NCBI GenBank assembly: GCA_023515725.1
Contig: JALDTO010000098.1
Span: 276,615-340,614, forward strand
DNA length: 64,000 nt
Source of the DNA: Amoeboaphelidium protococcarum X5
Taxonomy: Eukaryota; Fungi; Aphelidiomycota
Direction of reading: 5' to 3'
Made by a program: the position numbers and the translations under genes. Numbering within the stretch: the stretch's first letter is position 1; each line of letters starts with the position of its first letter. The notes under the pieces were generated by a model, which saw only the letters and a list, made by a program, of their open reading frames with translations, did no database searches and was not told the DNA's origin. This document shows positions 17,364-36,444 of this stretch, in pieces.

Positions 17364-20300
17364 TCAGTAGAGATTGATCAAATCCTGTAATAGTTTTTAA
17401 GCATTAACACGAGTAAAAACATTCTGATCCCAAGCCATGTCAACAATCTGACAATATTTGTCGAGCCTTGGATCTTGGATGGTTGGTTGAATTTATACTC
17501 TGCCACCTGCACAAACAGACTCTTATATCTGTTCTTTAGTGAACCCTTTCCAAGCCGGCTGTCTGTTCAGCAGTTCCGCCAGAATGACAGCACCTGCAAA
17601 GACATCGCGCTTGGGTTTCAAATCATCAGATACAAGTTGCTTCATCCAAACTTCCGGTGCAGCGTATGTAGGAGTGGAACCAGCCAGTGCATTCCAATTC
17701 AGCCCGGTAACCGTCTATGATTTGCCCAGCAGGGTACAAATACCAAAATCGGTCAGGCAGACGCGTACCTGTCCAGATGAAGTGTCCACTAGATAATTGG
17801 CAGCCTTGATATCGTTGTGGACGACACCTGTAGCGTGCATCACCACCATAGCAGAGAATACATCAATAGCCAGAGACTTTACGAGATCAAAATTCCATTC
17901 AACCTACTAACTTAACACGCTCTTCAAACCGATCAAATCATCCAATGATCCATTATGGTAATAGAACATCAGCATAACCAAATTCTCAGCATCAATACCA
18001 GCCAGTTTCGCAATGTGAGCACAATCTTTGAATCTCCACATTAAAGCGACTTCTTGCAAGAAAGCTTCGGAGTTCGCCTTGTTCGATGTATATTTCGCAA
18101 CCATGGTCTGGCCTTCGTATTGACGCAACGGATGGTCGGATGGGGTAGTCAGTATCTGTACAAGCCATATACTACCTTAACCACCAGCATTCAGTTAGGA
18201 GTTTGGAACTTTACGGAAATTCTGACCCTCACTTAGCCGTAAAAATCCGGGAACTGAGATTTCAAACGAGGTTGGGAGCATTGTCGTACCACCTTGCATT
18301 TACGTGCTAATGACTTGCATAGCAGTAGTGGTGGCGGCAGAGGATGCAACACTACTTTGTGTATACGTGCTGGCCCTTGTCATCTAAGTGCTAACCTTTT
18401 TAGTACGACGATACTTTTGGCGCGCATATAGTCCCACAATCAGAACAGCTATCACAAATACACCAGATACAATAGCTGCAACCGCAGATATCATTGACGA
18501 TTAGCCCTATAAAGCCTGAGGCCCAGATTGATCTCGAGCACCCTCATTTGAATTGGTGGAAACAGACTAACCTCCATTAAGATTGCCAATTCCAAAAGTT
18601 ATCAGCCCATTAATTGAAGTACTTACTACAAAAGACGAGCTAGATGGCAATGTAATTGACGTCTTTGTAGAAGAGCTTAGAAAACCAGCCGACTATGTTA
18701 CTGTATATGTAACGGCAGTCGATGTAGATAGGGAGTGAGAAGTATATGAGAATTATGTAGCAGAACCATTGGTAACGGAGCCATTAGTAACAGCAGTAAA
18801 TTACAAGGACGTAGAGAACGAGGTGGCAGTCGGTGTAGAAGTAGTGGTAGTAGTCGTAGTTGTGGTACTAGTTGTGGTAGTGGTCGGAGTGCTTGTAGTA
18901 GAGGTAGTTGTCGTAGTTGTGGGAGTACTAGTCGTTGTTGTGGTCGTCGTCGTAGTAGTCGTAGTTGTTGTACTTGTCGTCGTAGTCGTAGTTGTTGTAC
19001 TTGTCGTCGTAGTACTGGTGGTGGTAGTCGTCGTAGTTGTAGTAGTGGTAAGTACCATAGGAAGCAGATTACCAATCTTTGCCACACCTTGAACAAATGC
19101 CAAATTCTTCGTAACACCAGAGTCTTCAATAACATCTACAGAGCTTCCACTTGTCTGAAAGGAAATGATGAAACCACGATCTTCCAACGCAAAACCTTTC
19201 TGGAGATTAACATTTTACGAGGGAGTATAAATAACAGTTTGATTGAAGAAATTGCCAGTTGAATCAAAGACCATAATGACTGCGTACTGACCGGCGAAGG
19301 GGTGCACGTACTACTTTGTTATACTACCACTGTTGTTAAAGCTGATTGTAGCGGCTGAAGACACACCACTAAACAGCATATTATCGTTTACATCAAATTG
19401 AAGAGGTAGTTTTACAGCGGCAGAGCCAGACACAACTAACCACTTAGAAATAGACCTTGCACCCTGCAGTTTTAATAGATAAGATCCAAAGACCCCAGTT
19501 GATCCAAGAGTCATTACTGCAAAATTTGAAGCATTATACGCAATAAAGGGACCGTTAACGAAAATAGAAACATACGCAGCACCTGACTTATCAAAAGAGA
19601 CTCCACCAGAAGTTTCATCGCCTATGCCAGCAAATCGCCAATTATACTGAAACGCGCCAGTGGAATTAAATATCAACAGAGCACAATCAATTCCTTAAAC
19701 AAAGGGCGCTGAAACCACCCGACCTGTGGAGTCAATAAGATTAACATCATTTTATTGATTCATCTGCATGTACAAGTCGCCATTGGAGCTAATTTACATT
19801 CCAAAGTCCAAGGCAAATGTATAGTCGTTGAGGAAATAAATCAGATTAAGATTATTATCAAGCATAAAGACATGACCATAGCCACCACTGGAAGGACCAG
19901 CGACATTATCATTGTCATAGTATACAACTGGGTTATTTTACCAACCACCAAAACTGTTCCATACATGGATCACGACTTAACCATTAGGGCTAGTGAGGCT
20001 ATAATGAGGCACATTCCACGAGCCATCCGCACCAAAACGTGCAGTTCTCAATAGAGTACCATTACTAGCAAATTTGGCGACTACTGGCTGAGAGCCGCCA
20101 TTTAGAGGAATGGTCTTGGCTACTAGATTAGTTGTAGTGTAAAATTTAAAATCACTTGACTACTCCCATACAGTTGCTATAATGTTATCAAAGGGATCGA
20201 CGGTAAGCTAAGCCATAAAGTCGTCAGCAGCACCACTCATCATTAAATGCCACTGTAACGCGCCAAACTTATCATACTTTGCAATGTAACCATCAACACC

Positions 20301-20504
20301 ACTCTGATAAACCTGGGTTAACACAAAAGAGCCATTTGCAGAGTATATCTGCTCATTCAACTTTCCGACAGCCTAATAAGCGTAGAAATTTCCTTTAGAA
20401 TCTTGTTTAGTAACGTACAAAGAGCCTGTGGCACTGATAGTAAAATCGACGCCAGCAGTGATTACATCGGCCAGCAGCAACCAAGATGAAACTATAAACC
20501 ACAT
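17364..20504 (-). CDS. Receptor-like protein kinase 1 (signal peptide, beta-propeller-like ectodomain, poly-Thr stalk, TM, TKL-type kinase)
   Basis: 1047-codon table-6 frame; kinase motifs 'AGGQGSIWL', 'VAKY', 'HNDIKAANYL', 'TDFG', 'RDVFA'; TM 'MISAVAAIVSGVFVIAVLIVGLY'. Confidence 0.85.
18835..19050 (-). repeat. ACN-codon microsatellite encoding the poly-Thr/Ser stalk of RLK1
   Basis: gta/gtt/gtc/gtg runs on the + strand; about 65 Thr/Ser/Pro codons. Confidence 0.9.
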
Positions 20505-20973
20505 TTTCGTATGCGAGTAATTTATTCAAAGCTTAATAGGGAGATGTAAATGAGACAAAAGCGCAAAATGACTTATAATCCGTAATCTGAACCCAATATG
20601 CATTGGAATAACCTTGGGATTGGACGAGTACAGGAATCTCTGATAGGAATCGTTATTAAATCTATTTTCATGTCTTATACCAAAATGCGATAATGAAAGT
20701 AACATCAGATACTGTATATAACATATATATCAGCTGTTTTTCGACCGCCGCAGCTGCTGAGAGTATCGTTGCGAGTGGCTTGTTTCTAATGCTATCATCG
20801 TTTCACCTCAACAGCTTTTGGGGGAGATCATACAGTGAGAATGCAACTCTCACGGTCGCGGAGACCCCGATTTATCTGCACACAGCGTCTAAAATTAAGA
20901 AATTAATATTGATCACGACTATTTTCTATTCATTTCATCGTTTCCTTTTACTATCATCATTTTTTATTATATA

Positions 20974-21380
20974 AGAAGTAATATCTTTTATTTGGGACCA
21001 AAAGTAAAACAATTTAAATTTTAACTTCGGAGAATATCTAGAAGTAAAATAATACTCACTTTTACTGCGCCATAAATGTCGCCGTAGTAAATCAAATGAT
21101 TATTTTACTTGGAGATCTTAATGGATGCCTAAAAGTATAATTACTTTTGGTCCCAAATAAAAGATTAATTAGCAAGTCAAACTTGAAATGATAACATGCA
21201 TATCTTAAGACAGAACTTGATAGTAAGATTGTGTTTAAAAAGGACCTTAAACCATGACTATCAGGATCCCAAAAAAGTTTTCAATTTTGATCCCAAATAA
21301 TGCATCAAAATGTTAATGAAACCCAACCAGGATGTCTTTGAAAGGTGTCACAGATATCTCAAGGAATCTCTAAGAAATCT
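20974..21380 (+). repeat. Left terminal inverted repeat
   Basis: Outer ~195 bp match the reverse complement of 29011-29205 with ~13 mismatches by manual count; inner ~200 bp match 28797-29010 more loosely. Confidence 0.9.
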
Positions 21381-21541
21381 CAGAAGGTGAACACAACTCG
21401 ACATATCAACCGAATGACGATGGGATAAATGTGCTGTGGTGACTTGAAATCCAACGCTGCTCCGAAATCGCTCAATCAGAACATCGGTAGCCAGATCATC
21501 CAAAAAATCAGAACGCCAATCTCTTTTTTTCAATTTTTACG

Positions 21542-22804
21542 ATGGACCAAAATCAGCTCACACCAAGAGAATGCGCCGCTAAACTAGAAGCCATTGAGAA
21601 GAAGATCGACGACTTGAGGACCAAGAATGAGTACAACGGTGTCGAAATTACTGACAATGAAGAGAAGAAGGAGATAATCGCGGATTTGAAGCAGAAGGAG
21701 AAAGAATGGAGCGCTCGACTCGATCGTGCTCAGTTCGCCTCTACTCAGAAGCCCACCTGGCAATCACCATCATTTACGCTTTCCGCCGAGCCAGCATCTT
21801 ATTCAGTGACTATTATGAATCAAAAGCAGGGCGGCGCATTGTTATTGGCTATTCCGTGTCTATCGAAGGGCAGACGATGGGATCGCGTTCTGCTCTTTCT
21901 GAAGGCCGTGTGTGGCGATTTCGATATTCAGCATTATTCCTTGTCAAGTAACAATTCTGATATCGAGCTTTCAGATGATCTGCACCTTCCTCCTGCCGAA
22001 TTCACGCTCTCCCCGATTGATGATTCTCATTCCGTGCTGACCGTTATTTTCCAACCGCTTCCTATAGTTCCCCGTAGCACGTTGTCGCGACGAACATCAG
22101 GAGCCACTACACCGATTGAAGAACCGTCATCATCATCAAGACCTCAAAAGAAACCACGAGTTGAGTCTGAAGTTGACAAGCTGGTTGTTGAAAGTACGAA
22201 AGCCTTTGGCCGCGACGCGACATTTGAAAAACGAATCTTTCAGCGGGATCAACACTGCATTATCACTCGACAATACAGGTCACTGAAAGCCTCCCATATT
22301 GTTGCTCACGCTTGGTGGATGGACCATCCTGATCGTAAAGAACGACTGCCAGAAGATATCAAAAGGATTATCCGTTCTCTTGATGGGGGTATTGATCATA
22401 TTACCAATGGAATATTTTTGGATGGATCGATTTCAGATGCGTTCGACCGAGGAGACTTTTCGTTTCAGTTTGTGGATGGGCATTACTATGTCGTTTCAAT
22501 TACACCTGACTATGATTCAATCGATGGACTCCAGGTTGATGAATGTGTGCGTAATCGCTGGGATGGCACTGTTTGGTGGTGTCCGGAAAATCGTCCCAAT
22601 CCTTATCTGATGGCATTTCATTTGCGTAATAGTGTGTTTGCTCATTGTCGTGGTGCTGCTGGTTATGATGAATTTGACACCGAAGATGACAAAGAGAATG
22701 TTAAGATTGCGAGATCGGTTGTCAGTGAGTTCTTTGAGAATTCTGAAATCGGAAGTAAGATTGCATCATCGCTTACTTCGGAAGCATTAGCTCAATTTGA
22801 ATAA
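21542..22804 (+). CDS. HNH-endonuclease-domain protein with coiled-coil N-terminus (Crinkler/CR-effector-like); cargo
   Basis: 'FEKRIFQRDQHCIIT...ASHIVA...GGIDHITNGIFL...AFD...RPNPYLMAFHLR' HNH_2-type motifs; 420 aa open in the standard code; TAA stop overlaps AATAAA. Confidence 0.75.
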   Translation: MDQNQLTPRECAAKLEAIEKKIDDLRTKNEYNGVEITDNEEKKEIIADLKQKEKEWSARLDRAQFASTQKPTWQSPSFTLSAEPASYSVTIMNQKQGGALLLAIPCLSKGRRWDRVLLFLKAVCGDFDIQHYSLSSNNSDIELSDDLHLPPAEFTLSPIDDSHSVLTVIFQPLPIVPRSTLSRRTSGATTPIEEPSSSSRPQKKPRVESEVDKLVVESTKAFGRDATFEKRIFQRDQHCIITRQYRSLKASHIVAHAWWMDHPDRKERLPEDIKRIIRSLDGGIDHITNGIFLDGSISDAFDRGDFSFQFVDGHYYVVSITPDYDSIDGLQVDECVRNRWDGTVWWCPENRPNPYLMAFHLRNSVFAHCRGAAGYDEFDTEDDKENVKIARSVVSEFFENSEIGSKIASSLTSEALAQFE

Positions 22805-23028
22805 ACTCATAAACTCTCATGGAAACTCGTATTTTAAGTTATGTCTACTATACATCATCACAGTTTATGTCCCAAACGCCCGAATAAATCAGCGAGCTCT
22901 CGTTCCATATTAACATCATTCGCTATTGTCATCACGATGCTGCTCATTTTGCCGCAAAGATGGACATCGTCAATAAAACCCTGTTTGTTTACTAACTTAC
23001 TTTCTTTCCAACAAAATTTTAGACTAGA

Positions 23029-24999
23029 ATGACCAGCTCGACGCAATCGGTGTCGGGTGAGAGTAAAGCACCATTATATGACCTTCATTGCCATCTAATG
23101 GGTTGCGGTCGATGGGACGATTTTTGGCAGAAGGAGTTGAAGGAAGCGCTGCATAGAGCCCATACGGCAAATTTTGATAAACTGAGAGGCTTAACGGATG
23201 AACAACAGAAATTGTATGAAAGTACACTACTTACGGCAGTGAAGGCGGTGGAAGAATCCGACGATAGGGACAGAGATAGGGACAGAATATCCCCAGTCTT
23301 AAAATGTGACCCTAAGGCCATTTCCACACAAATTCAAAGCGAAGCTCTGCAAACTGCTGTCAAGGAGAGTCCGAATGACCAATTCTTATTCAGCTCACAA
23401 CTGTTGGTTGACAATCGGGTATACAGTCGATTTACTCAACAAGGATTAGGTTGTTACGAGAATTTGGGTGTCATCATTTTTGCGGCAGTGATGGGCTTCT
23501 CCTCGCTACCGGTAATCATCGAAAGTGTGAAAGCTTTAATCGACGGTTTCAGTCGAACCCCAGTTATTACATTGTCATTATGGACGATTATCGTGTTTGG
23601 TGGGATTATGAGTACCAAACTAGTGATGTATCTTTTGTGCCAACGCCTACTCAGCTGCAAGATCAAGCAAAATGTCATATTCTTCAACGAACGTCTCTGG
23701 AAATTTGACATTTATCGTGAAGCACTCCTGGTTCAAGATATTTTTGATTGTCTGGGGATGGAGGGGATGAAACAGTTTTTCGAATCAACTGACGATGCAT
23801 GTGTCTTTACGCCTGGATTTTACCCGAAATGTTTCTTTATGAAGGATGCCCTATATTTTAGAGACATAACGGTTCTGCAACGATTGATTGAAGAAGTGGT
23901 CGAGAAATACAAGAAGGCTGGAGTTGTATATGTCGAGTTCTCTGTTAGCGTCAAAGATTTGTATAAGTATCCGTGGGTGTTTCATCAGCTCTGTGTCAAA
24001 GCGAAGGCTGAAGAAAGAGCCGCGCAAACCCATGACAAAGACGGGGCGGTGAAAGAGAAATCAGAGTGTAAATACCGCTTTTTGGCTGCTGTTGCTCGCA
24101 TGGAGCGAAGATTTGCGTTGAATGATGAGGATGCTATTGCCATAAACAGTAACACAGAGTCGGTAGATGGTTGGTTGGACAGGCAATGTCCTAATGATCC
24201 AATGTCTCACTACTTTGACAGCATGAAAGGTGGTGATGAACTTTTGAAAATGGTTCGCGGTCTCGATTGGGTGTCAGATGAATACGGGTACCCATATTGC
24301 CCGTTTTACCGTGAAAAGTTTTTCGAGTATTCTCGTCGGCAAATTGAACGTAATGCAGAGAAAGGGTTTCCACCATGTTTCGGATTGCGTCCACATTTGG
24401 GTGAAGTGACTGAGAAAGGTTATGAGGAGTGGGTTGATAAGAATGGACGAAAAGTACCTGGTTCGATTTACTTTGACGTTCACAAGAAAATTATCACCAA
24501 GATTGCTGAACGAATGATGCAGGGTCAATTGGTTCCGTATGATCTTGAAGGTAAAAGTTACTATGTTGGTATGCGGTTTGGCCATGGCGTAGCACTACTT
24601 GTCGATTCGCACTTTCAGAAAGGGATGGTAGTGGAACTCAATTACACCAGCAATAAGAGATTGCTTCGATTTCTCGGTTGTCACGAGTTTGTAGAAGCGT
24701 CCAAAAATAGCCTTGTGAATGAATTGATTGCCAACATTGTTATAGGTACGGATAATGACGGCATATTTCCCTGCATAACAGGGGATGAACAGTTAATTAA
24801 AGCTGAACTTCTGAACCTAAAAAAGGACGGCTTCGTCGATACCATTCCCGACCGACCTGATCAACAAATTGTTGCTCAAGCATACCAATGTACTTTCAAT
24901 TACTATGATGGTTGGTCACCCAGATTCCTCTTGCAGGCAAAAACTCATACAGTTTTGCCTTTGGATACAAATGCTGATCAATTGGCGCCCTACCCTTAA
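23029..24999 (+). CDS. Adenosine/AMP deaminase-like amidohydrolase; cargo
   Basis: Metal/catalytic motifs 'DLHCHL', 'VVYVEFS', 'HLGE', 'RFGHG', 'VELNYTSN', 'GTDNDGIF'; 656 aa open in the standard code; stop TAA-TGA. Confidence 0.75.
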   Translation: MTSSTQSVSGESKAPLYDLHCHLMGCGRWDDFWQKELKEALHRAHTANFDKLRGLTDEQQKLYESTLLTAVKAVEESDDRDRDRDRISPVLKCDPKAISTQIQSEALQTAVKESPNDQFLFSSQLLVDNRVYSRFTQQGLGCYENLGVIIFAAVMGFSSLPVIIESVKALIDGFSRTPVITLSLWTIIVFGGIMSTKLVMYLLCQRLLSCKIKQNVIFFNERLWKFDIYREALLVQDIFDCLGMEGMKQFFESTDDACVFTPGFYPKCFFMKDALYFRDITVLQRLIEEVVEKYKKAGVVYVEFSVSVKDLYKYPWVFHQLCVKAKAEERAAQTHDKDGAVKEKSECKYRFLAAVARMERRFALNDEDAIAINSNTESVDGWLDRQCPNDPMSHYFDSMKGGDELLKMVRGLDWVSDEYGYPYCPFYREKFFEYSRRQIERNAEKGFPPCFGLRPHLGEVTEKGYEEWVDKNGRKVPGSIYFDVHKKIITKIAERMMQGQLVPYDLEGKSYYVGMRFGHGVALLVDSHFQKGMVVELNYTSNKRLLRFLGCHEFVEASKNSLVNELIANIVIGTDNDGIFPCITGDEQLIKAELLNLKKDGFVDTIPDRPDQQIVAQAYQCTFNYYDGWSPRFLLQAKTHTVLPLDTNADQLAPYP

Positions 25000-25050
25000 T
25001 GAATGCAGGTATGCCTTTACCACTGGGTTTTAATGATGCCAATAAATCCT

Positions 25051-26085
25051 TTACTTTCTTGATCTCTTACTTTGTCTTCTATCAGGCTCAATACCTTCAC
25101 GTTCACGAATGCGTTTATCAGCGCGGTAGATGTCAAGTTGCTTTTGCCTCAGTGAATTGTCAATGTCTTGACTTAGCGGTGACACCTTTAGCACTTCAAA
25201 CAAGTTGAATTTCTGGTGCCGACCTTCCACTTGAACACTATTTAATCCCACCTCCTCAACAATGTACACCTTTAACGTGAATCGCTGTCCCTCTTTCTCA
25301 AACGCGCCTCGTTTATTCAACAACCTGACAAAGTCCCCACGTTTGATGGCCGAATCAATAACTTTATTGTTGTGCGCAATACTTTTCCTAATCAGTTCCG
25401 CTTCATCAAATGTATCTAATCGCTCGGGTATCTTTGCGATGCTGCTATGAAATGATGAGTTGTAATTTTGAACAAAGTCTCCCAGATTATCAATCCATCT
25501 ATTGGTATTATTACGCGTCAGGAACTTTTCAATCATCAGTTTGATCGTGCGATTGAACCTCTCCGCAATCCCTAAACACTTCTTATCATCCTTCCCACAA
25601 TACTGGGCAGTGATATTATGCTGCGACATCCAAGATGTTATTCGTTTGTTTTGAAACTCTTTACCATTATCAGTCTGTAAAACTTTGATCGGTCTTCCAT
25701 CGTTGACTGATTGTTGTCGGATTAGATCAAAGGCTGCCAATACAGTTTCTTGAGTTTTATCTTTCAATGCTTCAACATATGCATATTTGGTGTTGACATT
25801 GATAACGTTGAGTAAGATATGATAGTTTGAATTCTGCTTTTGGTATCGTGTCAAGAAGGTCAGATCTGCCTGGTAATGCCCGACTTTACCGTGGATCTTT
25901 GGAACCGATTTAGAGTTCTTTGGTTTCTGAAACACTTGGCTTATTGGATTTTCAGCAAGGAACTCCTTAACCTGTTTCATTGTGATTTTTGGATTCTGCT
26001 CCTTGGCGCGTTTCAACAGCTTATCAGCTCCAACAAACCCTGTTTTGGGATCATTGAAAAGTGTACTTAGTAATTGTTGAGACAT
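25051..26085 (-). CDS. Retroviral-type (RVE) integrase, Polinton clade
   Basis: 'YQADLTFL' (D), 'LQTDNGKEF' (D), 'GIAERFNRTIK' (E), 'YNSSFHSSI', 'GDFVRL..RGAFEK'; likely start MSQQLL at 26085; ends TAA. Confidence 0.92.
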   Translation of the reverse strand: MSQQLLSTLFNDPKTGFVGADKLLKRAKEQNPKITMKQVKEFLAENPISQVFQKPKNSKSVPKIHGKVGHYQADLTFLTRYQKQNSNYHILLNVINVNTKYAYVEALKDKTQETVLAAFDLIRQQSVNDGRPIKVLQTDNGKEFQNKRITSWMSQHNITAQYCGKDDKKCLGIAERFNRTIKLMIEKFLTRNNTNRWIDNLGDFVQNYNSSFHSSIAKIPERLDTFDEAELIRKSIAHNNKVIDSAIKRGDFVRLLNKRGAFEKEGQRFTLKVYIVEEVGLNSVQVEGRHQKFNLFEVLKVSPLSQDIDNSLRQKQLDIYRADKRIREREGIEPDRRQSKRSRK

Positions 26086-26125
26086 GTATATATCAAAAAA
26101 GATAATCTTTATCAATAAATAATAA

Positions 26126-27922
26126 TTAATTACTGGATCGATGACCCATTGGAACTGAGTTGTTTCCAATGAAATGGCGTCCTTTCCATGGGGTGGAATT
26201 AATTTGTTTTGTTAATGCATCCAGCTTCAGAATACTGAAATTATCTACGTTTTGCTGTTTTGAGCTCTTGTTTAAATTGACGCGTTTGAAGTCTCTTTGC
26301 ATTTCAATATTGACCGGTTCCCCTCGCATCATCAATTCAAAGTTTTTCATGTTTAACTGATCGTTGGGTATGCCTTTGCCTCGTAAGTGATACTTGATCT
26401 CCTCAACATCGCCTTGTTTTTGAACGTACTCAAGAAAGTATAACTTTGGGGCAATCCATCCACCATACAGGATTTTACTCACTCCAGGCAGGTCATCACT
26501 TATGCCTCCGATCTCATTATCCAGAGTTAATCCCTTCAAGTTCTTGACGTGAATTTGAATACTATCTGTATCTGTGTAGTAAGGCGCGTTTTCAAGCTGA
26601 TTTTTTGTGTCAGCGCTATTGAAATATAGATTAGTCTTTTGTAAGTAATCGAGCATTATCCTGCGACTGTACCCCAGAATGAAACTTCCCAGATAGCAAG
26701 GCTTTGAAATCTTTGTTGCAAGTTTGGATTCATCCTGATAGGTAAGGTAGAAGCTTCCATCGCTTAAATATCGCATTGATACTCCACCGTATTTGATGTG
26801 AAACTTGATGAATTCTTCGTGAAGGTAAATGATCACGTTCTCGTCAAGAATGGGCCGTTGGATGGTTTTACCATATAGTCCATTCATCATCAACTTGGCT
26901 AGTTTGTACTGGGCACTGCCCTTTGTAGCATTTTTCTTGAATTCATACAGGTAGTTGATGTAGTTATTGAACACGTTCTCAGTCTGCTCCCAGTAATATC
27001 CCTCCAATATATCTATTTGATACCCATTCGTGAGAGCGTTATCAATATCAACACTGTTATATGTTCCACATCCATCAACCAAATCCCATAATAATCGCCC
27101 ATCACTTCTCCTTGGCAAAATAGCATCAATCAAGTTTCTATTTGTTACATATTCCACGCGGTAGATGCCAAATTTTGAACACTTATTATTCTGTTGGATT
27201 GACTGGTTAAAGTATTTGCATGATGGAGTGCCAGGTCTCAGATGTACTGGAATACCTACTGGGAATTCGTTTTTCATGGCAGCTGGATACAAGGAATTCA
27301 CATCTGCATTAACTAAGTAGTCATCAATATCTTCAAACTTGATCTGCTTACGGATATAGGGCTCACGTTGGCTACTCACAAACTTGTGTTTGTATTTGTA
27401 TGTTCTCCCTCCATAAATTGACTCTCTAAAGAACTGCTCTTGCTCTGGGGTGGGTAGAAAAACTGGATTGTTGCTTTCCTTATACAAGAAATCAACCCAT
27501 GCAGCGTAAGTCAGCTTTGATGTTGATAGAAACTTGTAAAGATTAACACCGAAATTCTCGAAACAACTTTTGTTTAATCGCTGGGACAGTTCTTTCAATC
27601 CCATTACATCGCCTTCCAAGTATTTCAAACAATCTGTTCGGTCATCATTGCACATGTTATCCCACTCATCTCCCAATATGTAATCAAAATCACCTTTCTG
27701 AACTGCACACTCTAACTCCTCGAGGTTCTTTCTCAACGTTCCTGTAATGTGTTTCGATATATCAAAACACGAGATATTTCCAATACTGGCTTTGAGAATG
27801 GCTCCGTTGTTTAACAGCAGCGTATCCAGCTTGATATCCACATTATCGCTATGCATCTGATTGAGTTTCTTGACAAATTCGTAGTGATCAAATTTGCTGC
27901 CGTTGAATGCATTGATGATGAC
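26126..27922 (-). CDS. Protein-primed family B DNA polymerase, 5'-truncated (no ExoI)
   Basis: ExoII 'AFNGSKFDH' upstream of the called ATG, ExoIII 'YLEGDV', motif A 'DVNSLYP', B 'KLMMNGLYGK', C 'YTDTDS', 'APKLY', 'RGKG'. Confidence 0.88.
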   Translation of the reverse strand, partial: VIINAFNGSKFDHYEFVKKLNQMHSDNVDIKLDTLLLNNGAILKASIGNISCFDISKHITGTLRKNLEELECAVQKGDFDYILGDEWDNMCNDDRTDCLKYLEGDVMGLKELSQRLNKSCFENFGVNLYKFLSTSKLTYAAWVDFLYKESNNPVFLPTPEQEQFFRESIYGGRTYKYKHKFVSSQREPYIRKQIKFEDIDDYLVNADVNSLYPAAMKNEFPVGIPVHLRPGTPSCKYFNQSIQQNNKCSKFGIYRVEYVTNRNLIDAILPRRSDGRLLWDLVDGCGTYNSVDIDNALTNGYQIDILEGYYWEQTENVFNNYINYLYEFKKNATKGSAQYKLAKLMMNGLYGKTIQRPILDENVIIYLHEEFIKFHIKYGGVSMRYLSDGSFYLTYQDESKLATKISKPCYLGSFILGYSRRIMLDYLQKTNLYFNSADTKNQLENAPYYTDTDSIQIHVKNLKGLTLDNEIGGISDDLPGVSKILYGGWIAPKLYFLEYVQKQGDVEEIKYHLRGKGIPNDQLNMKNFELMMRGEPVNIEMQRDFKRVNLNKSSKQQNVDNFSILKLDALTKQINSTPWKGRHFIGNNSVPMGHRSSN

Positions 27923-28287
27923 CTGAGAATAGGTCGAATAACTGAGCAGGTGATTAATGAATTGTTCTTTTCCTTGCTCGCGAAATAAGCTAAATCCCGA
28001 ATTGGCATTCTTTCATTCATGCCGATTAGATATCCATCATTCGATAATTTGATTTTCAGTCGATATTCAAACTTCCTTTTAAAGTCTGTGTAGTCCATTT
28101 GATAGTAATCATTCAGCAGATCAACTAATGAATATGTGTCATCCTCAGATATTACCATGATATTATTCAGTTTTTTTCTGAGGCATTGCTTCTTACTATC
28201 AAAGTACAAACTAAACTCATCAAAGATATAATCTATAGTAGGAAGCCTCTTTGGCTCTTCGAAATTAAGTTTGTTTGTACGAACCAT
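27811..28287 (-). CDS. Element ORF, probably the pPolB N-terminal remnant joined out of frame
   Basis: 158 aa standard-code ORF preceded by the same AT-rich motif as the integrase; its last ~35 codons read the PolB ExoII region in another frame. Confidence 0.5.
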   Translation of the reverse strand: MVRTNKLNFEEPKRLPTIDYIFDEFSLYFDSKKQCLRKKLNNIMVISEDDTYSLVDLLNDYYQMDYTDFKRKFEYRLKIKLSNDGYLIGMNERMPIRDLAYFASKEKNNSLITCSVIRPILRSSSMHSTAANLITTNLSRNSIRCIAIMWISSWIRCC

Positions 28288-28344
28288 CGATGTATATAAT
28301 AGGAAATATATTTATTACCAAAATAATTAATTAATACCTCTTAC

Positions 28345-28790
28345 GTTTGACCTTTCGAGCTTTGAGCTTTGACCTTTGATCTATCTTTGACCTTTGCACC
28401 TTTTGACCTTTCACCTTTGATCTATCTTTGACCTTTGCACCTTTGCACCTTTTGACCTTTTGACCTTCAATTATTTAATTATTTTCTACAAAATTTTCAT
28501 TCCCAATATATAGCACGAGGTTGCATCACACATAGCTTGATCGGAAGTTTCAACTTTGACCTTTTTCACCTTTAGCAAATGATCTAATGACCTTTCGACC
28601 TTTCAACTTGTGATCTTTAACCTTTTGACGCTTCACCTTTGCATCTTTAAACTTCTACGCCTTTGTTTTGCACAATCTCGCATTCTATTGAGCTTTATGA
28701 GAATATTCAACTTTGACCTTTGCGCCTTTGACAAATGATCTAATCCCTAATCCTTTGACCTTCGACCTTTGACATATCACCTTTTGAGAT
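28345..28790 (+). repeat. Degenerate (T)TGACCTTT tandem array in two clusters
   Basis: Many units of tttgacct/tttgcacct/tttcacct at 28345-28470 and 28555-28790, all on one strand. Confidence 0.8.
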
Positions 28791-28796
28791 TTATTT

Positions 28797-29205
28797 GCGA
28801 TTTCTTCAAGATTTCTCGCTGATATCTGTAACGCGTTTCAAAGACATCCTATGTTGGGTTTCATCCAAATATTGTTGCATTATTTGAAATCAACATTGAA
28901 TGCTCGGCTGCGATCTCTTTATACGTGGTTTAAGTTCATTTTAAGACGATCTTGTTATTATCAAACTCAAGACGTAGTTTAAGTACTACTTGAGGGTCTA
29001 ACCATTCAAATTAATATTTTATTTGGGACCAAAATTAATTACACTTTTAGGCATCTATCAAGATCTCCAAGTAAAATAATCATTCGATTTACTACGGCGA
29101 CATTTATGGCGCAGTACAAATGATTATTATTTTACTTTTAGATATTCTCCGAAGTAAAAATTTAGCTTGTTTTACTTTTGGTCCCAAATAAAAGATATTA
29201 CTTCT
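28797..29205 (-). repeat. Right terminal inverted repeat
   Basis: Reverse complement of the left TIR. Confidence 0.9.
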
Positions 29206-29247
29206 TATATATCACTGTTCTAAAGTAATCAAAGAGCCAATTGCTCA

Positions 29248-32200
29248 TCATAGATTGACCAAATCATTCAATACGCGTTGAGCATGTACACGCGTAAATA
29301 TATTTTGATCCCAGGCCATATCAATTATTTGACAATATTTGTCGAGCCTTGGATCTTGGATGGTTGGTTGAATTTATACTCTGCCACCTGCACAAACATA
29401 CTCTTATATCTGTTCTTTAGTGAACCCCTTCCAAGCCGGCTGTCTGTTCAGCAGTTCCGCCAGAATGACAGCACCTGCAAAGACATCGCGCTTGGGTTTC
29501 AAATCATCAGATACAAGTTGCTTCATCCAAACTTCCGGTGCAGCGTATGTAGGAGTGGAACCAGCCAGTGCATTCCAATTCAGCCCGGTAACCGTCTATG
29601 ATGTGCCCAGCAGGGTACAAATACCAAAATCGGTCAGGCAGACGCGTACCTGTCCAGATGAAGTGTCCACTAGATAATTGGCAGCCTTGATATCGTTGTG
29701 GACGACACCTGCCGCGTGTAGCACTACCATAGCAGAAAATACGTCAATAGAGAGAGACCTAATCAGTTCAAAGCTCCAAACAATTTGCTAACTTAACACG
29801 CTCTTCATATTTACAAAATCATCCAATGATCCATTTTGGTAATAGAACATCAGCATAACCAAATTCTCAGCATCAAAACCTGCCAATTTTGCAATGTGAG
29901 CACAATCTTTGAATCTCCACATCAATGCAACCTCTTGTAAGAAAGCCTCTGCACTAACCTTATTAGTAGAATACTTTGCAACCATAGTCTAACCATCACA
30001 TTAACGGAAAGGATGATCAGACGGAACAGTAAGTATCTAGACAAGCCAAATACTACCTTGACCGCCTGCATTTAGCAGAGAATTAGGAATTTTACGAAAA
30101 TTCTGCCCCTCACTAAGCTTTAAGAATCCGGGCACCGAAATTTCAAATTAGGTAGAGACCATAGTAGTGCCACCCTACATTTATGTGCTTCGAATCTCCA
30201 TGACAGTGGAGGAAGCTGCAGAGGGAGCGACACTATTCTGAGTTAACGTGCTGGCTTTAGTGCTAATCTTCTTGGTACGACTAAACTTTTGACGCGCATA
30301 TAAAGCAACAGCTAATACTGCGACTACAAAGATGCCAGAAACAATAGCTGCAACTGCAGATATCATTGACGACTAATTTTGTTGAGCCTAAGGCCCAGAT
30401 TGATCTCGAGCACCCTCATTTGAATTCGTGGATACAGATTAGCCTCCAATAGAACCACCAATACCAAACGTTATTAGCCCATTAATTTAAGAGCTAACTG
30501 CAAAAGATGAGCTCGATGACAATTTAACTGGCGTCTTTATAGAATAACTCAGAATACCAGCTAAAGATGATACTGTATATGTAACGGCAGTCGATGTAGA
30601 TAGGGAGTGAGAAGTATATGAGAATTATGTAGCAGAATCATTGGTAACGGAGCCATTAGTAACAGCAGTAAATTACAAGGACGTAGAGAACGAGGTGGCA
30701 GTCGGTGTAGAAGTAGTGGTAGTAGTCGTTGTTGTGGTTGTGGTCGTGGGCGTCGGAGTACTAGTTGTGGTTATTGTACTCGTCGTGGTGCTAGTGGTAG
30801 TGGTTGTCGTAGTAGTTGTTGTAGTAGTCGTCGTAGTCGTAGTAGTGGTCGTGGTTGTTGTAGTAGCAGTGGTGTACAGCACGGTAGGTACAGGTAGGAA
30901 ATCCAACAATCTCGCAACACCTCTCTGGATAGGAATGGCAACTTGGCCACCTCTTGTATCATTAAACAAAACGCCCTGTCCATCAGTGATAAAGCCAGCA
31001 AGCATTTTGTTCTACGGAAGCCACTAAAAATAGCCAAATCTTGTATTTTGTGTTGCATTGTACAATAAACTGCGACCCCAAATCTTGCCCAGATTATGAT
31101 AAGCAAACACAATACCATACTGAAACGGGAACTAACGATTGTATTGCGTAGAAATTACACCAGTAGTGTTAATACTCAAAACAGCAGCATCAGAATATAA
31201 AGCATAAAACAAATTATCCTCATTGTCCATGAGCATGTTGCCTGTAGTGGATCCAGCACCACTTACGCTGGACCACCATGTAACAGATGTCCCGCCATTC
31301 AGCTTGAAAAAATAAGCCCCAGATACACCGGTTGCACCCATTTATAACACGGGAGTATTAACAACATTAAAAACAGTGAACGGACCACTGGAGGATACCT
31401 GTTAAATCGGAGCACCAGCATTATCAAAAGTTAGCTAAATAGGCGCCTAATCGCCTGGGCCACTAAATCTCCAAAAATATAAGAAAGCTCCAGTGGGATC
31501 AAATACTATCAAGTTGACATCGATGCCAGAATCATAAAGAGTATAAACTTCAAAGCCTTTGGTATCCGTGAGAGCCGTACCTGACTATGCATACTGCTGA
31601 TAATAAAGCACACCTGTGGGTCCTATAGTTAAACGCGAAAATACAGCGAAGCTACCATCATCCACATTATAGATGTGATTGAGGTTATTGTCCATCATGA
31701 AGATGTGCCCGCCACCATTACTGGTTGCGACAATGGTACCATTATTGTCGTACATATTCACTGGATTGGTTGGCCATCCGCCGTAAGAGTTCCACATCTG
31801 TACCGCAAACCATCCGTTTGGCCCAAGCACAGACCAATTTGGAACATTATATGAACCAGGGGCATACAGTTGAGCTGTGCGGAGCAAAGTACCGTTGGGA
31901 TGAAACTTGGCAACGACGCCTTAAGTGCCACTCGGGATGTTGATAGACTTCACAGGCTAATGATTAGTGCTATAATACTTAAAGTCTTGCGATGTTGTCC
32001 AAGTAGAAAAGAACAGATTATCCTGCGCGTCAACAAAAGGACCTTAACCCCAATCATCACCGCTACCAGCAATGTGGAAGTACCATAATAGATTACCTTA
32101 GGTGTTAAATTTCATGTAGATACTGTCTGAACCACCTCCAGCGTAGAAAGTTGTTGTTGTCACAGACCCATTCGCAGAATAGATCTACTCACCAACTTTA

Positions 32201-32340
32201 TATACATATGCACGTGCGTAAAAGTTACCTGCGGAGTCAATAGTGGAGAGTTCATAATCACTCGAGCTTCGAATAGTAAATTCATTAGAAGCAACAGCCA
32301 AGTTGATTAGCAATGCAGTCAAAGCCAGGCGAATATTCAT
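29248..32340 (-). CDS. Receptor-like protein kinase 2 (paralog)
   Basis: 1031-codon table-6 frame from MNIRLALTALL to ...DLVNL-TGA; same architecture; kinase C-lobe nearly identical to RLK1. Confidence 0.85.
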
Positions 32341-32517
32341 TGATGGCAAATTATTCGTAAATAATGACGATAAAGCACGAAGTCTGTACTGTATGCTGAT
32401 GTAATAGTAACACAAGTTGTCTGATTGGTGCATTAATAGCAGGATTGATTGGCCATTCTTAGGCCGAAAAAGCAACACATGAAGCTAACACGGTAAATAG
32501 ATTATTTTACTTCAAAT

Positions 32518-35500
32518 TCATTTCAAACCATAAAGAGAATTCAGAACTTACATTGCGTGCGGCCTTAACGTGACATCCTACTCCCAAGCAGTGTAAATGA
32601 TCGCAAGTAACGCGTCATTCTTCGGGTCTTCAAAGCATGGAGTCAAAGCAGGACGTTCGCCGGCCAAGACAGCTTGACTTATTAGATCTCTGCTTTGTCC
32701 TGCCCATGCCACTTTTCTGTTGACCATCTCAGCCATTATGACAGCACCAGCATAGACGTCACGTTTCATTCTCTGTTAATCAAGCAATACTTGCTTAAGC
32801 CATACTTCAGGTGCCGCGTACATCGCAGTAAAGCCATTAAGCGCATTCCATGTCATACCAGTAACTGCTTTGGATGAACCCAAGAGGGAGCATATACCGA
32901 AATCGGTAAGACAAACGCGAATTTAACCAGATGACACATCGACGAGATAATTGCCAGCCTTAATATCATTGTGCACGACACCTGCTTGATGAGTAACCTG
33001 AATAGCGGCAAAGACGTCCACAGACAATGAATACACCAAGTCGAAATTATAAGTTACTAGACGGCTAATTTCGCTCTTACTTTCGATGAACATTTCAAGT
33101 GAACCTTGCTAGTAATGAGCCATTAAAAGGATCATATTCAGTGGGTCAAATCCGACTATTTTTGCTATGTGTGCGCTATCCTTAAATCGCCACATAAGAG
33201 CCACCTCTTACAAGAAAGCTTCAGACTAGCCCACGCCATTACTATACTTGGCAACAAATTTCTCGCCGGGCTGTGGTCTTAAAGGATATTAATAAGGTAG
33301 ATCCAGTATTTAAGCCAGCCATATAGAACCTTGGCCACCAGCGGTGAGTTGAGAATTAGGAATCTAACGAAAGTTGAGCCCTTCTGTCAGTCTCATGAAC
33401 CCAGGAACTGAGATCTCATAGGATGTCGGAACCAGTGTCGTTCCGCCTTGCATATTCGTAGCCCCTTGATGTATAGTGGTAGTTAATGCAAAAGATGCAA
33501 GGCTACTTTAAGTATACGTACTTGCCCTGGTGACTTGTGAGGTGATCTTAACACGGCGACGATGTAATTTGTGACGAGCATATAAAGCAGCTAGTACAAC
33601 TACCAGAACAAAGACAGCAGCTATTATTGCCACGATAGTCGATAACATCGAAGATGAGCCTTATAGAGCTGATGAATTAGACTAATTTTGAGTAGAATCA
33701 TCCACACCAGTTGTCGATTGAACCTTACTGTACGCAAAGTCTCCCAATCCAAAAGTGACAACGCCAACAGATAAGGAAGTCTTAATAGTTGTAAATGAGG
33801 ACGACTACAGCAATGGTTATGTCGTCTGTTCGACTAGCGACGTATTTGTCTTTGTGCTTGTACCAAAAGCTACCGTTGATGATGCATTCGCAATACTAGT
33901 AAATAGACCTGCGGCGACATTCCAGGTACTTGAAGATGCAGCGGATGCGAAAGGCGCAGTATTATTATTAGCAGTAATTGAAGTCGTGGTAGTAGGAGTA
34001 ATAGTGGAAGTTGTTGTCGTCGTCAATGTTGTCGTAGTCGTTGTGGAGGTGGTAGTAGATGTTGTAGTTGTTGTTGTTGTTGTGCTTGTAGTCGTCGTTG
34101 TACTTGTAGTAGTAGTTGTTGTTGTCGTGGTGGTTGTGGTAGTTGTCGTCGTCGTACTAGTCGTAGTACTGGTGGTGGTAGTCGTCGTGGTCGTTGTAGT
34201 GGTAGGTACCATAGGAAGCAGATTACCAATTTTTGCAATGCCTTGAGCGAAGGCGTAATTCTACGTAGTACCAGAATCTTCAATAATGTTCACAGAACTT
34301 CCACTTGTTTGGAAAGCTACTAGAAAGTCGCGATTTGCCAATACAAAACTTCCAAAGAGAGTAATACTTTACGCAGAAGTGTAGATTACAGTTCGGTTGA
34401 GGAAAGAACCAGCTTCATTAAAAACCATAATGATTGCGTACTGACCGGTAAATGGATGCACATACTAATTAGTGACAACACCATTGTTGTTAAAGCTAAT
34501 CGTAGCGGCTGCGGACACACCGCTAAAGACCATATTGTCATTTGTATCCAAAGCGAGAGATAATCTTACAGCGGCAGAGCCGGTTATAGACGACCATTTC
34601 AATATAGATCTGCCACCATTAAGCTTGAAGACATAAGATCCGGATACTCCAGCTGCTCCAAGCGTCATAACTGCAATGTTAGAAGCATTGTAAGCAACAA
34701 AAGGACCATTGACGAACACCGAAGCATAAACAGCACCAGACTTGTCAAAAGAAACTCCACCAGGTATTTCATCACCTGTACCAGCAAATCGCCAATAGTA
34801 CTAGAATGCACCGCTGGAGTTGAATACCAACATAGGGCAGTCCACTCCGCTAACTAAAGGTGCAGAAATCAAGCGACCTGTGGAATCAGTCAAGCTCACA
34901 GCAGTTTACTGATTCATTTGCAAAAATTAATCCCCATTAGCGTTAATTGTCATTGTGACATCCACGGCGAAAGTGTTATCGTTGTGGAAGTACACAAGAT
35001 TTAGATTATTGTCAAGCATGAACCTATGACCAGTGCCGCTACTGGACGGGCCAGCAACATTATCATTATTATAATAGACGACTGGATTGTTTTACCAACC
35101 ACCGAAGCTGTTCCATATATGAACCAATACCTGTCCATTAGGACCCACGACTGAACTCTGAGGCACATTCCACGAGCCAGCCGCGTCCAAACGCGCAGTC
35201 CTTAACAGAGTGCCATTACTAGAAAATTTGGCAACAACTGCCTATGAGCCACCACTTAAAGGAATAGTTTTGGCCACTTGGTTAGTTGTTGTGTAAATTT
35301 TGAAATCACTAGACTACTCCCATATTACTGCAATAATGTTATCAGAGGGATCAATGTTAAGAGAATACATATAATCGTCATTAACACCTGTCATCATGAG
35401 ATGCCACTACAACGCGCCAAACATATTATACTTTGCAATGAACGATTCAGCACTTCTCTGATAAACCTGAGTTTACACGAATGAGCCATTAGCAGAGTAT

Positions 35501-35658
35501 ATACGCTCATTCGCGACTCTGACATGTGAATACGTGTAGAAGAAGCCTTTCGAGTCTTGTTTAGTTGCCCATGTACCCGTGGCAGCCCTGACTGTAAAGT
35601 CGACGCCAGCAGTGATTAAGTTGGCAAGCTGCAGGGAAGCTACCACGATAGCCCACAT
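32518..35658 (-). CDS. Receptor-like protein kinase 3 (paralog)
   Basis: 1047-codon table-6 frame from MWAIVVASLQL to ...LYGLK-TGA; 'HNDIKAGNYL', 'TDFG', 'RDVYA'; poly-Thr at ~33980-34203. Confidence 0.85.
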
Positions 35659-36444
35659 TCTTAGAAATAGTTACATATCGAATCAAACTATTTAAAAATT
35701 ATAATCTTATAATTATCAACTTAACCAATTATATGATGTAAAAAGGAGCACCGTAACGAAATTTTGGGACTATATGCAGCGAAGTGGCTTGGGATTGGCC
35801 AGAATAAGCATCTCTGATTGGAGCCTTAATTATAACTAATGGGTATGGCCTCTTTCATTAACTATTAATCTTTGGCCAAATTCACTGCATAACGCTGTAT
35901 TAGACTTTATATATAATGGCTATTGTTTCAGTAATACGCTATTTTTGCTTTAAAAAATACGATGAAGAATATAGTAACAAAGAAGTGATGGGAGCATGAC
36001 ACTTTAACAGAATCGCGCCAAAGATGATTAGAAAGTAGAATTTTATTGCAATATAGATATATTTCGCAGCTATTATTGATTTGTTCAGTTAGAACCTCTA
36101 TGGCTGCATCTGCGTAAACTCCATACACAATCGATAGTTTGATACAGTACCACAAAGCAACCGCGCGAAATTGAATTCAAAAACTGAGAAAAGGTCCAGT
36201 AAATTCTATATAAGTTATACTAGCAGCAATTAGAACAAGGGAGTCAGTGTACAGTAGAGTTAAATACTTTGTTGTTTCATGTCTTGATCATAGCGGCGGA
36301 AATCATTCCAATCAACGGGCGACGGTCAACTGTCTACTCATTCATTCATTCTCGCTATTTCGCCCCATCGCAACAGACTGAAAGTGAGAGCCGGTGAAAC
36401 CATCAGGATTCCTCTCTCCCTCTCTCGTTGCTCCCAGTACAACA

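Follow-up and report, generated by a model that had tools for sequence, protein, structure and literature searches.

What kind of mobile element carries an HNH gene and an adenosine deaminase-like gene where no capsid genes are visible, and do the two genes belong together? Both questions are raised by a Polinton-type element in a stretch of 64,000 nucleotides (the window) from Amoeboaphelidium protococcarum X5 (assembly GCA_023515725.1, contig JALDTO010000098.1, positions 276,615 to 340,614 of the forward strand). A preliminary description of this DNA proposed that the two genes form an effector, toxin or antiviral module in place of the capsid genes. We think it rather probable that the element is a capsid-less, polymerase-truncated derivative of a Polinton, that it uses the standard genetic code in a host that reads UAR as Gln, that it arrived recently by horizontal transfer and that the HNH gene and the gene with the adenosine deaminase (ADA) fold are independent cargo.

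Ends, insertion site and gene content

Long terminal inverted repeats (TIRs) with AG...CT ends and a 6-bp target-site duplication are hallmarks of Polintons/Mavericks. The element in the window has both, and TATATA is found on both flanks (Table 1). The inverted repeats 20968-21170 and 29009-29211 are 94% identical over 203 nt. Identity between the arms is 90-94% over the first 200 bp and 52-84% over the next 340 bp, and a weaker likeness of the left TIR to the right arm runs on to about 21500. Two further Polinton/Maverick features are an intact integrase, 344 aa long versus 343-349 aa in its relatives, and a protein-primed family B polymerase (pPolB).

Contigs from four public runs, representing two samples, were aligned to the region; three of the runs come from one sample, possibly the source of the window. 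A joint from 20967 to 29206, with six ambiguous letters, was found in all four runs and thus in both samples. The element itself was also present in the three runs of the possible source sample, where contigs matched it with no differences over 21064-28401, which rules out an assembly artefact. In run X1, depth was 88 on the element contig, 95 at the empty joint and 159 in the flank, so one of the locus's two copies carries the element. Close to the site, the empty copy shows several differences, and it could be either a second haplotype or a duplicate; a genome-wide duplication is mentioned for A. protococcarum in the accessible part of PMC10608142. The second sample contained two empty-site joints. 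Its run has no cover over the HNH gene, the ADA-fold gene and most of the polymerase gene, and the site-spanning joints alone were used as evidence. The insertion site is polymorphic, as filled and empty forms were both seen.

The capsid, packaging ATPase and protease genes of an autonomous Polinton or polintovirus are missing from the element. Twelve proteins from related loci (two proteases, two packaging ATPases and eight putative capsid, fibre or unassigned proteins) were compared with it by tblastn, and none gave a match below E 0.15. The largest non-coding gap is 918 bp. Eight of the nine proteins searched against PHROGs had no match. The preliminary description was therefore right in seeing no capsid, ATPase or protease gene here.

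The related loci were retrieved with the integrase, 14 from viral and at least 73 from metagenome data (87 examined). They include three viral contigs of 15-19 kb, L074, L075 and L076, that encode both pPolB and integrase. Among the matches listed, L075 is the closest long locus (integrase 46%, polymerase 42%) and has the same gene order. Its upstream genes encode a protease-like protein (Pfam E 0.0025) and products of 284, 581 and 505 aa. The 581-aa protein has homologues in L076 (577 aa) and L074 (600 aa), both of which also encode A32 ATPases. The integrase of L075 is split into two open reading frames (ORFs). A metagenome element with a related integrase (L003:1-15826) has a primase-like gene in place of pPolB within the stretch seen.

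The pPolB of the window is not the complete polymerase of an autonomous Polinton. It aligns to the 1,133-aa polymerase of L075 from aa 511 only, so that it has no equivalent of about 500 N-terminal codons, Exo I among them, of the full-length relative; the Exo I-like motif of L075, at aa 402, lies outside the aligned part. The short ORF that abuts the polymerase gene is likely its 5' remnant across a deletion. Such a deletion near 28010 would have removed the N-terminus of the polymerase and probably, in the same event, the morphogenesis genes. Since the cargo lies on the other arm, 'replaced' does not hold in a positional sense, and a probable deletion takes the place of the proposed exchange. 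The element would still move by means of its own integrase; if it is copied or packaged, it would depend on a helper.

Each TIR is itself an imperfect palindrome of about 185 nt, so that the two ends are also direct repeats. The palindromes have folding energies of -37 and -34 kcal/mol (without shuffled controls) and are possibly a replication or integration signal. The tract of TTTGACC-type units is found on the right arm only. One X1 contig runs through the right TIR (29205 in the window) and then into a different flank, which suggests another insertion with a similar end.

Table 1. Features of the element in window coordinates
Feature	Position	Strand	Basis or remark
Whole Polinton-type element, 8,232 bp, ends AGAAGT...ACTTCT	20974..29205	.	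Repeats, ends, empty-site joint
Target-site duplication TATATA (6 bp), left copy	20968..20973	.	
Target-site duplication TATATA (6 bp), right copy	29206..29211	.	
Left TIR, core	20974..21170	+	Imperfect hairpin 20983-21165
Right TIR, core	29009..29205	-	Imperfect hairpin 29014-29196
Cargo gene 1, 420-aa HNH_2 protein	21542..22804	+	Pfam HNH_2 aa 239-309; ends TAA
Cargo gene 2, 656-aa ADA-fold amidohydrolase	23029..24999	+	Profile, AlphaFold2 model; ends TAA TGA
In-frame cation-efflux (CDF) transporter fragment, aa 120-209, two membrane helices	23386..23655	+	Within the lid of the ADA-fold protein
rve (DDE) integrase, 344 aa	25051..26085	-	PF00665 E 3.7e-11
Protein-primed family B polymerase, 3' part (Exo II onward)	26126..28012	-	PF03175 E 1.1e-50
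Short ORF of no known family	27811..28287	-	Abuts polymerase out of frame near 28010
Subterminal short-repeat tract, TTTGACC-type units	28340..28790	.	Between short ORF and right TIR

Genetic code and arrival in the host

According to the accessible part of PMC5304391, A. protococcarum reads UAR as Gln. In the 21 frames of at least 400 aa found in the window under code 6, TAA and TAG make up 407 of 855 Gln codons, a count that includes leaders and some shadow frames. In the ORFs of the element they make up none of 101. This zero arises partly by construction, since these ORFs were called under the standard code. It is still informative because the lengths of the integrase and the HNH protein match those of their relatives and the polymerase ends where that of L075 does. 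The four main ORFs of the element all end with TAA. Reading them in code 6 would add 76 aa to the HNH protein, one to the ADA-fold protein, 45 to the integrase and 11 to the polymerase. In that code the HNH frame runs on past its TAA as far as a TGA, which shares letters with the start codon of the ADA-fold gene (ATGA, 23029-23032), an overlap that may be chance.

No stops were found in 2,138 codons of the element, where 6.6 would be expected at 2% neutral divergence (P about 0.001), so its residence in the host has been short. As residence is short and the TIRs diverge by 6-10% across 200 bp, the arms were probably unlike already before insertion. The nearest integrase (85%) is that of Amoeboradix gromovi, and clusters at 75-83% contain A. 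occidentale proteins. From the code mismatch, the intact ORFs and these relatives, it is likely that the element was acquired recently by horizontal transfer. As a marker that a Polinton has entered an aphelid horizontally together with its cargo, the code mismatch is unusually clean.

The cargo genes and the transporter fragment

The preliminary description placed an HNH gene and an ADA-like gene side by side in the same orientation, and both ORFs and both identities were upheld. The HNH protein has a helical N-terminus, a middle region and then the HNH_2 domain (E 1.9e-7, above the Pfam cut-off). In an active HNH nuclease motif, the last His or Asn is a metal ligand. Here this ligand is absent, and Ser298, in NGIFLDGSISDAFD, stands at the last-His position, as had been noticed before. 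Two environmental relatives, 86-87% identical, have the same Ser (three of three sequences), and their last residue is the one at which the standard-code ORF stops. In the core, four of 164 positions differ, versus 51 of 256 elsewhere (p 3e-8). Since all three share the Ser and the core is conserved, Ser298 is a trait of the lineage and not decay of the window copy. Judging from these sequences, the protein likely binds DNA or nicks it weakly and is likely still under selection.

The Atlas clusters closest to it (0.94-0.95) are HNH_2 proteins from chytrids and ascomycetes. Transposon-borne Crinkler-like effectors have been reported in the accessible parts of PMC12957317 and PMC5289972. As in the CR/Crinkler HNH proteins described in the latter part, a eukaryotic HNH_2 domain lies behind a variable N-terminal region, whereas the window protein has Ser for the last His and a header domain did not come to light. 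Pfam gave no match to a Crinkler or ubiquitin-like domain, and none at E<=5 for aa 75-175. The structure model, built from three sequences, is poor, with a mean predicted local distance difference test (pLDDT) score of 39.8 and values below 50 past residue 65; a helical hairpin was modelled at aa 8-68. Of the earlier term 'CR-like HNH', the C-terminal HNH-type domain thus stands and the Crinkler header was not confirmed.

The ADA-fold protein has no match to the Pfam deaminase model (PF00962). The sole Pfam match of its ORF is a weak one to Cation_efflux (aa 131-205, E 0.008). Among 1.84 billion representatives searched, 164 matched at E<=0.001, of which the best 150 were listed; the best ADA-fold relative is 35% identical. 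A family profile was built from 72 aligned sequences (71 matches and the window protein). It matched ADAL (E 8.7e-10), plant MAPDA, AMP deaminases, ADAs and RdrB (7e-4). Three of 14 aligned family members match PF00962 themselves at E<=0.05, the best at 4e-5. The AlphaFold2 model has a mean pLDDT of 74, and its barrel (aa 271-600) mostly exceeds 75. Its best structural match is the ADA of P. aeruginosa (3ou8; Z 21.6, root-mean-square deviation 3.1 A, 298 aligned); the scores are lower for RdrB (Z 18.8, 4.1 A, 346 aligned), Cad1 (18.8) and mouse ADA (18.3). ADA matches overall span Z 17.4-21.6.

All metal ligands named in the preliminary description are present. They are H20, H22, H456, H519 and D575, together with the catalytic E459, and each is the majority residue at its position among the 71 aligned relatives. 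N576 is a normal variant (D in 36, N in 32). The protein therefore has the HxH, HxxE, His and Asp set and the amidohydrolase TIM barrel of PF00962, in common with the ADA/AMP deaminases of that family (ADA, ADAL/MAPDA, ADA2 and AMPD). Unlike these enzymes, with which it shares 13-21% identity, it has a lid of about 240 aa with a CDF fragment in it and falls below Pfam detection. From its model and its motifs, it is likely to be a Zn-dependent deaminase that acts on an adenine nucleoside or nucleotide.

The family comprises about 150 clusters at 50% identity and is patchy, with bdelloid rotifer and environmental members. A quickly built tree with 60 rows puts the window protein beside P0005, on a long branch (2.32) and with unsure placement. 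Nine of the 21 mostly long members scanned are fused to Roc, ankyrin, kinase, OTU, UCH, lipase or dynamin domains, some of these matches being below the Pfam cut-off. Proteins of 1,600-2,500 aa with such fusions are P0032, P0038, P0065, P0081, P0085, P0105, P0107 and P0127. A conflict role of the family is plausible from these fusions. Among the papers listed, outside subscription journals, we found none on this ADA-fold family or on a Polinton with HNH and ADA cargo, and none that links A. protococcarum with Polintons; one paper on a Polinton and adenosine deaminase concerns, in its accessible part, the tRNA deaminase TadA.

The preliminary description had noticed a two-segment hydrophobic insert and treated it as a feature of the ADA. 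Two hydrophobic stretches are indeed present, with 19-residue Kyte-Doolittle means of up to 2.38 and 1.80. They belong to a captured fragment of a CDF transporter and not to the ADA fold. None of the 58 full-domain family members reaches a hydrophobicity of 1.6 in this region. Of the best 150 of 164 matches, 10 align with aa 120-216 only, and nine of these 10 pass Pfam Cation_efflux. The best CDF match spans aa 134-209 with 44% identity (E 2.2e-8). A profile of the ten sequences, circular as to score and useful as to ends, sets the limits of the fragment, and it matched none of the 58 full-domain members. The fragment covers 90 residues, corresponding to Pfam positions 54-125 of 198, and so falls short of a whole membrane and dimerisation domain. 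The spacing from HxH to FTP is 242, versus a family median of 233 (range 168-309), and a motif present in 36 of the 58 members is lost. Since the spacing is near the median and this motif is missing, the CDF piece replaced native lid sequence.

The piece has drifted, having Cys where eight aligned CDF proteins have Arg, and pLDDT is below 50 over aa 80-126 and 139-154. No second contig in the runs covers it at >=80%, so no present-day host donor was seen. In the model the insert is not part of the barrel, and this may explain how the gene kept its open frame. It would be a one-off recombination product, tolerated because of the variable lid position and the frame that was kept open. A frameshift-pair artefact was considered, as an open alternative frame exists at 23412-23708, and was rejected: the family profile is empty in the other frames, and the annotated frame is that of the CDF match. 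An intron was not supported either, as none of the five in-frame GT..YAG pairs has a strong donor. The result is gene chimerism inside a mobile element, with a transporter fragment in frame within the lid of an enzyme.

Independent cargo or a module

Polintons without capsid, ATPase and protease genes have been reported before, with nine elements in the accessible part of Krupovic et al. 2014 (PMC4028283). The window element resembles them, as described there, in its TIRs, integrase, pPolB and concerted absence of capsid, ATPase and protease, and differs in its truncated polymerase, its length of 8.2 kb, its two cargo genes and a code other than that of its host. For nematode Mavericks, the accessible part of Widen et al. 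(10.1101/2022.07.12.499685) describes a cargo slot flanked by the left TIR on one side and the integrase on the other, horizontal transfer and a toxin derived from cargo. In the wasp/krma Mavericks of that text, the capsid and fusogen genes are retained and the cargo is a recurring one (47 of 235 wasp genes), whereas the window element is capsid-less, carries HNH and ADA-fold genes and showed no recurrence in a weak test. Polintons without a capsid and Mavericks with cargo are thus known from earlier work, and the window element is a case of them with unusual cargo.

The weak test concerned co-occurrence. In the 87 integrase loci listed, there was no match to the HNH protein, the ADA-fold protein or the family profile. 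Scans of viral contigs with polymerase, integrase, ADA and HNH alignments, of metagenomes with the HNH alignment and of prokaryote genomes with a four-sequence ADA alignment found no locus either, these being exact-pattern scans of low sensitivity. In the possible source runs, four to six other contigs cover the integrase (>=80%), and one alone covers the HNH and ADA-fold genes. Nothing found contradicts a one-off capture of both genes, and this test does not firmly establish it either.

The RADAR system, according to the accessible part of PMC9994260, pairs an AAA+ ATPase with an ATP deaminase, and the preliminary description had drawn an analogy to its RdrB. The ADA-fold protein shares with RdrB and Cad1 an ADA-fold enzyme and a possible conflict setting. 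It differs in that the element is eukaryotic and without an AAA+ ATPase or CARF partner: no RdrA-like AAA+ ATPase is found among its ORFs, which leave no room for one. The Z of RdrB lies within the ADA range and below the best ADA, and its profile E is weaker than that of ADAL. The model is thus no closer to RdrB than to ordinary ADAs, and the analogy found no support. A recurring toxin or antiviral nucleotide-depletion pair of the RADAR kind, borne by Polintons, is accordingly an unlikely reading, although purifying selection on the HNH core, the intact ADA ligands, the family's fusions (deubiquitinase domains included) and the ability of Maverick cargo to turn into a toxin, as described by Widen et al., all speak for it. 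No second locus carries either gene beside an integrase or polymerase, within the weak test above. The element lacks an ATPase sensor, RdrB is not the closest fold, and PADLOC gave no match better than E 0.01 and no RADAR model. The nearest ADA relative is 35% identical versus 87% for the HNH relatives, which points to different histories. A conflict role thus agrees with the fusions of the ADA-fold family, and the HNH and ADA pair as such did not emerge as a system.

Selection could instead have kept the transporter fragment as an anchor by which an active deaminase is held at a membrane. We doubt this functional innovation: it is a single case among the family, a conserved family motif was lost for it, the piece has drifted from CDF proteins and is partly modelled at low pLDDT, and no signal peptide is evident in the sequence. 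Still, the replacement is sense-strand, in-frame, length-keeping and free of stops, both helices were kept and the barrel is well modelled. Less probable again is a splicing of both ORFs by the host into a 1,048-aa HNH-ADA fusion. Such a public model exists (KAI3640176.1, A. protococcarum) and its parts agree in every letter with the two ORFs, its implied intron (22755-23068) starts with a strong GTAAGA donor and the TAA of the HNH gene is not a stop in the host. However, the acceptor that it calls for (AAG) is weak, the ends of both HNH relatives coincide with that of the standard-code ORF, and the model omits 16 HNH residues that align with both. A code 6 gene finder sees no stop at 22802, and the fusion is possibly an artefact of code 6 calling on standard-code genes.

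Several points weigh against a capsid-less derivative with independent cargo. A close integrase (64-70%) occurs in just two of the 87 loci listed, and both contigs end less than 200 bp from it. Contigs from the runs show presence and not absence, and the DNA around the 87% HNH relatives (contigs of up to 2,355 and 1,578 bp) and a 16.7-kb Amoeboradix node lay outside the co-occurrence test. The L074-L076 genes are putative capsid genes by their size, mutual homology and context, with no profile match, and the deletion near 28010 is deduced from a relative at 42-46%. Moreover, an in-frame, sense-strand, length-keeping swap would occur by chance about once in 18, by our own estimate, and some selection on the chimera is probable. 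We nevertheless prefer the capsid-less derivative, in which the HNH and ADA-fold genes would have been gained as independent cargo and not as a fixed module; this cargo is unusual but probably one-off.

Of all this, the uncharacterised ADA-fold family and its immune-type fusions offer the best lead. Should the family prove to deaminate ATP or AMP, it would correspond in eukaryotes to the nucleotide-modifying defence of bacteria. A bolder proposal, which we rate as improbable, is that the family is a eukaryotic nucleotide-deaminating conflict effector (a counterpart of RdrB/Cad1), spread by polintoviruses among algal parasites across code barriers, with the window copy anchored to a membrane by its transporter helices.

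The surroundings of the element contain three tandem receptor-like kinase genes in code 6, all on the minus strand (17367-20525, 29248-32511 and 32521-35682). Their products have a signal-like N-terminus, a large ectodomain, a Thr-rich stalk, a membrane helix and a Pfam kinase domain. The element is inserted between two of these genes, about 37 bp past the stop codon of one.

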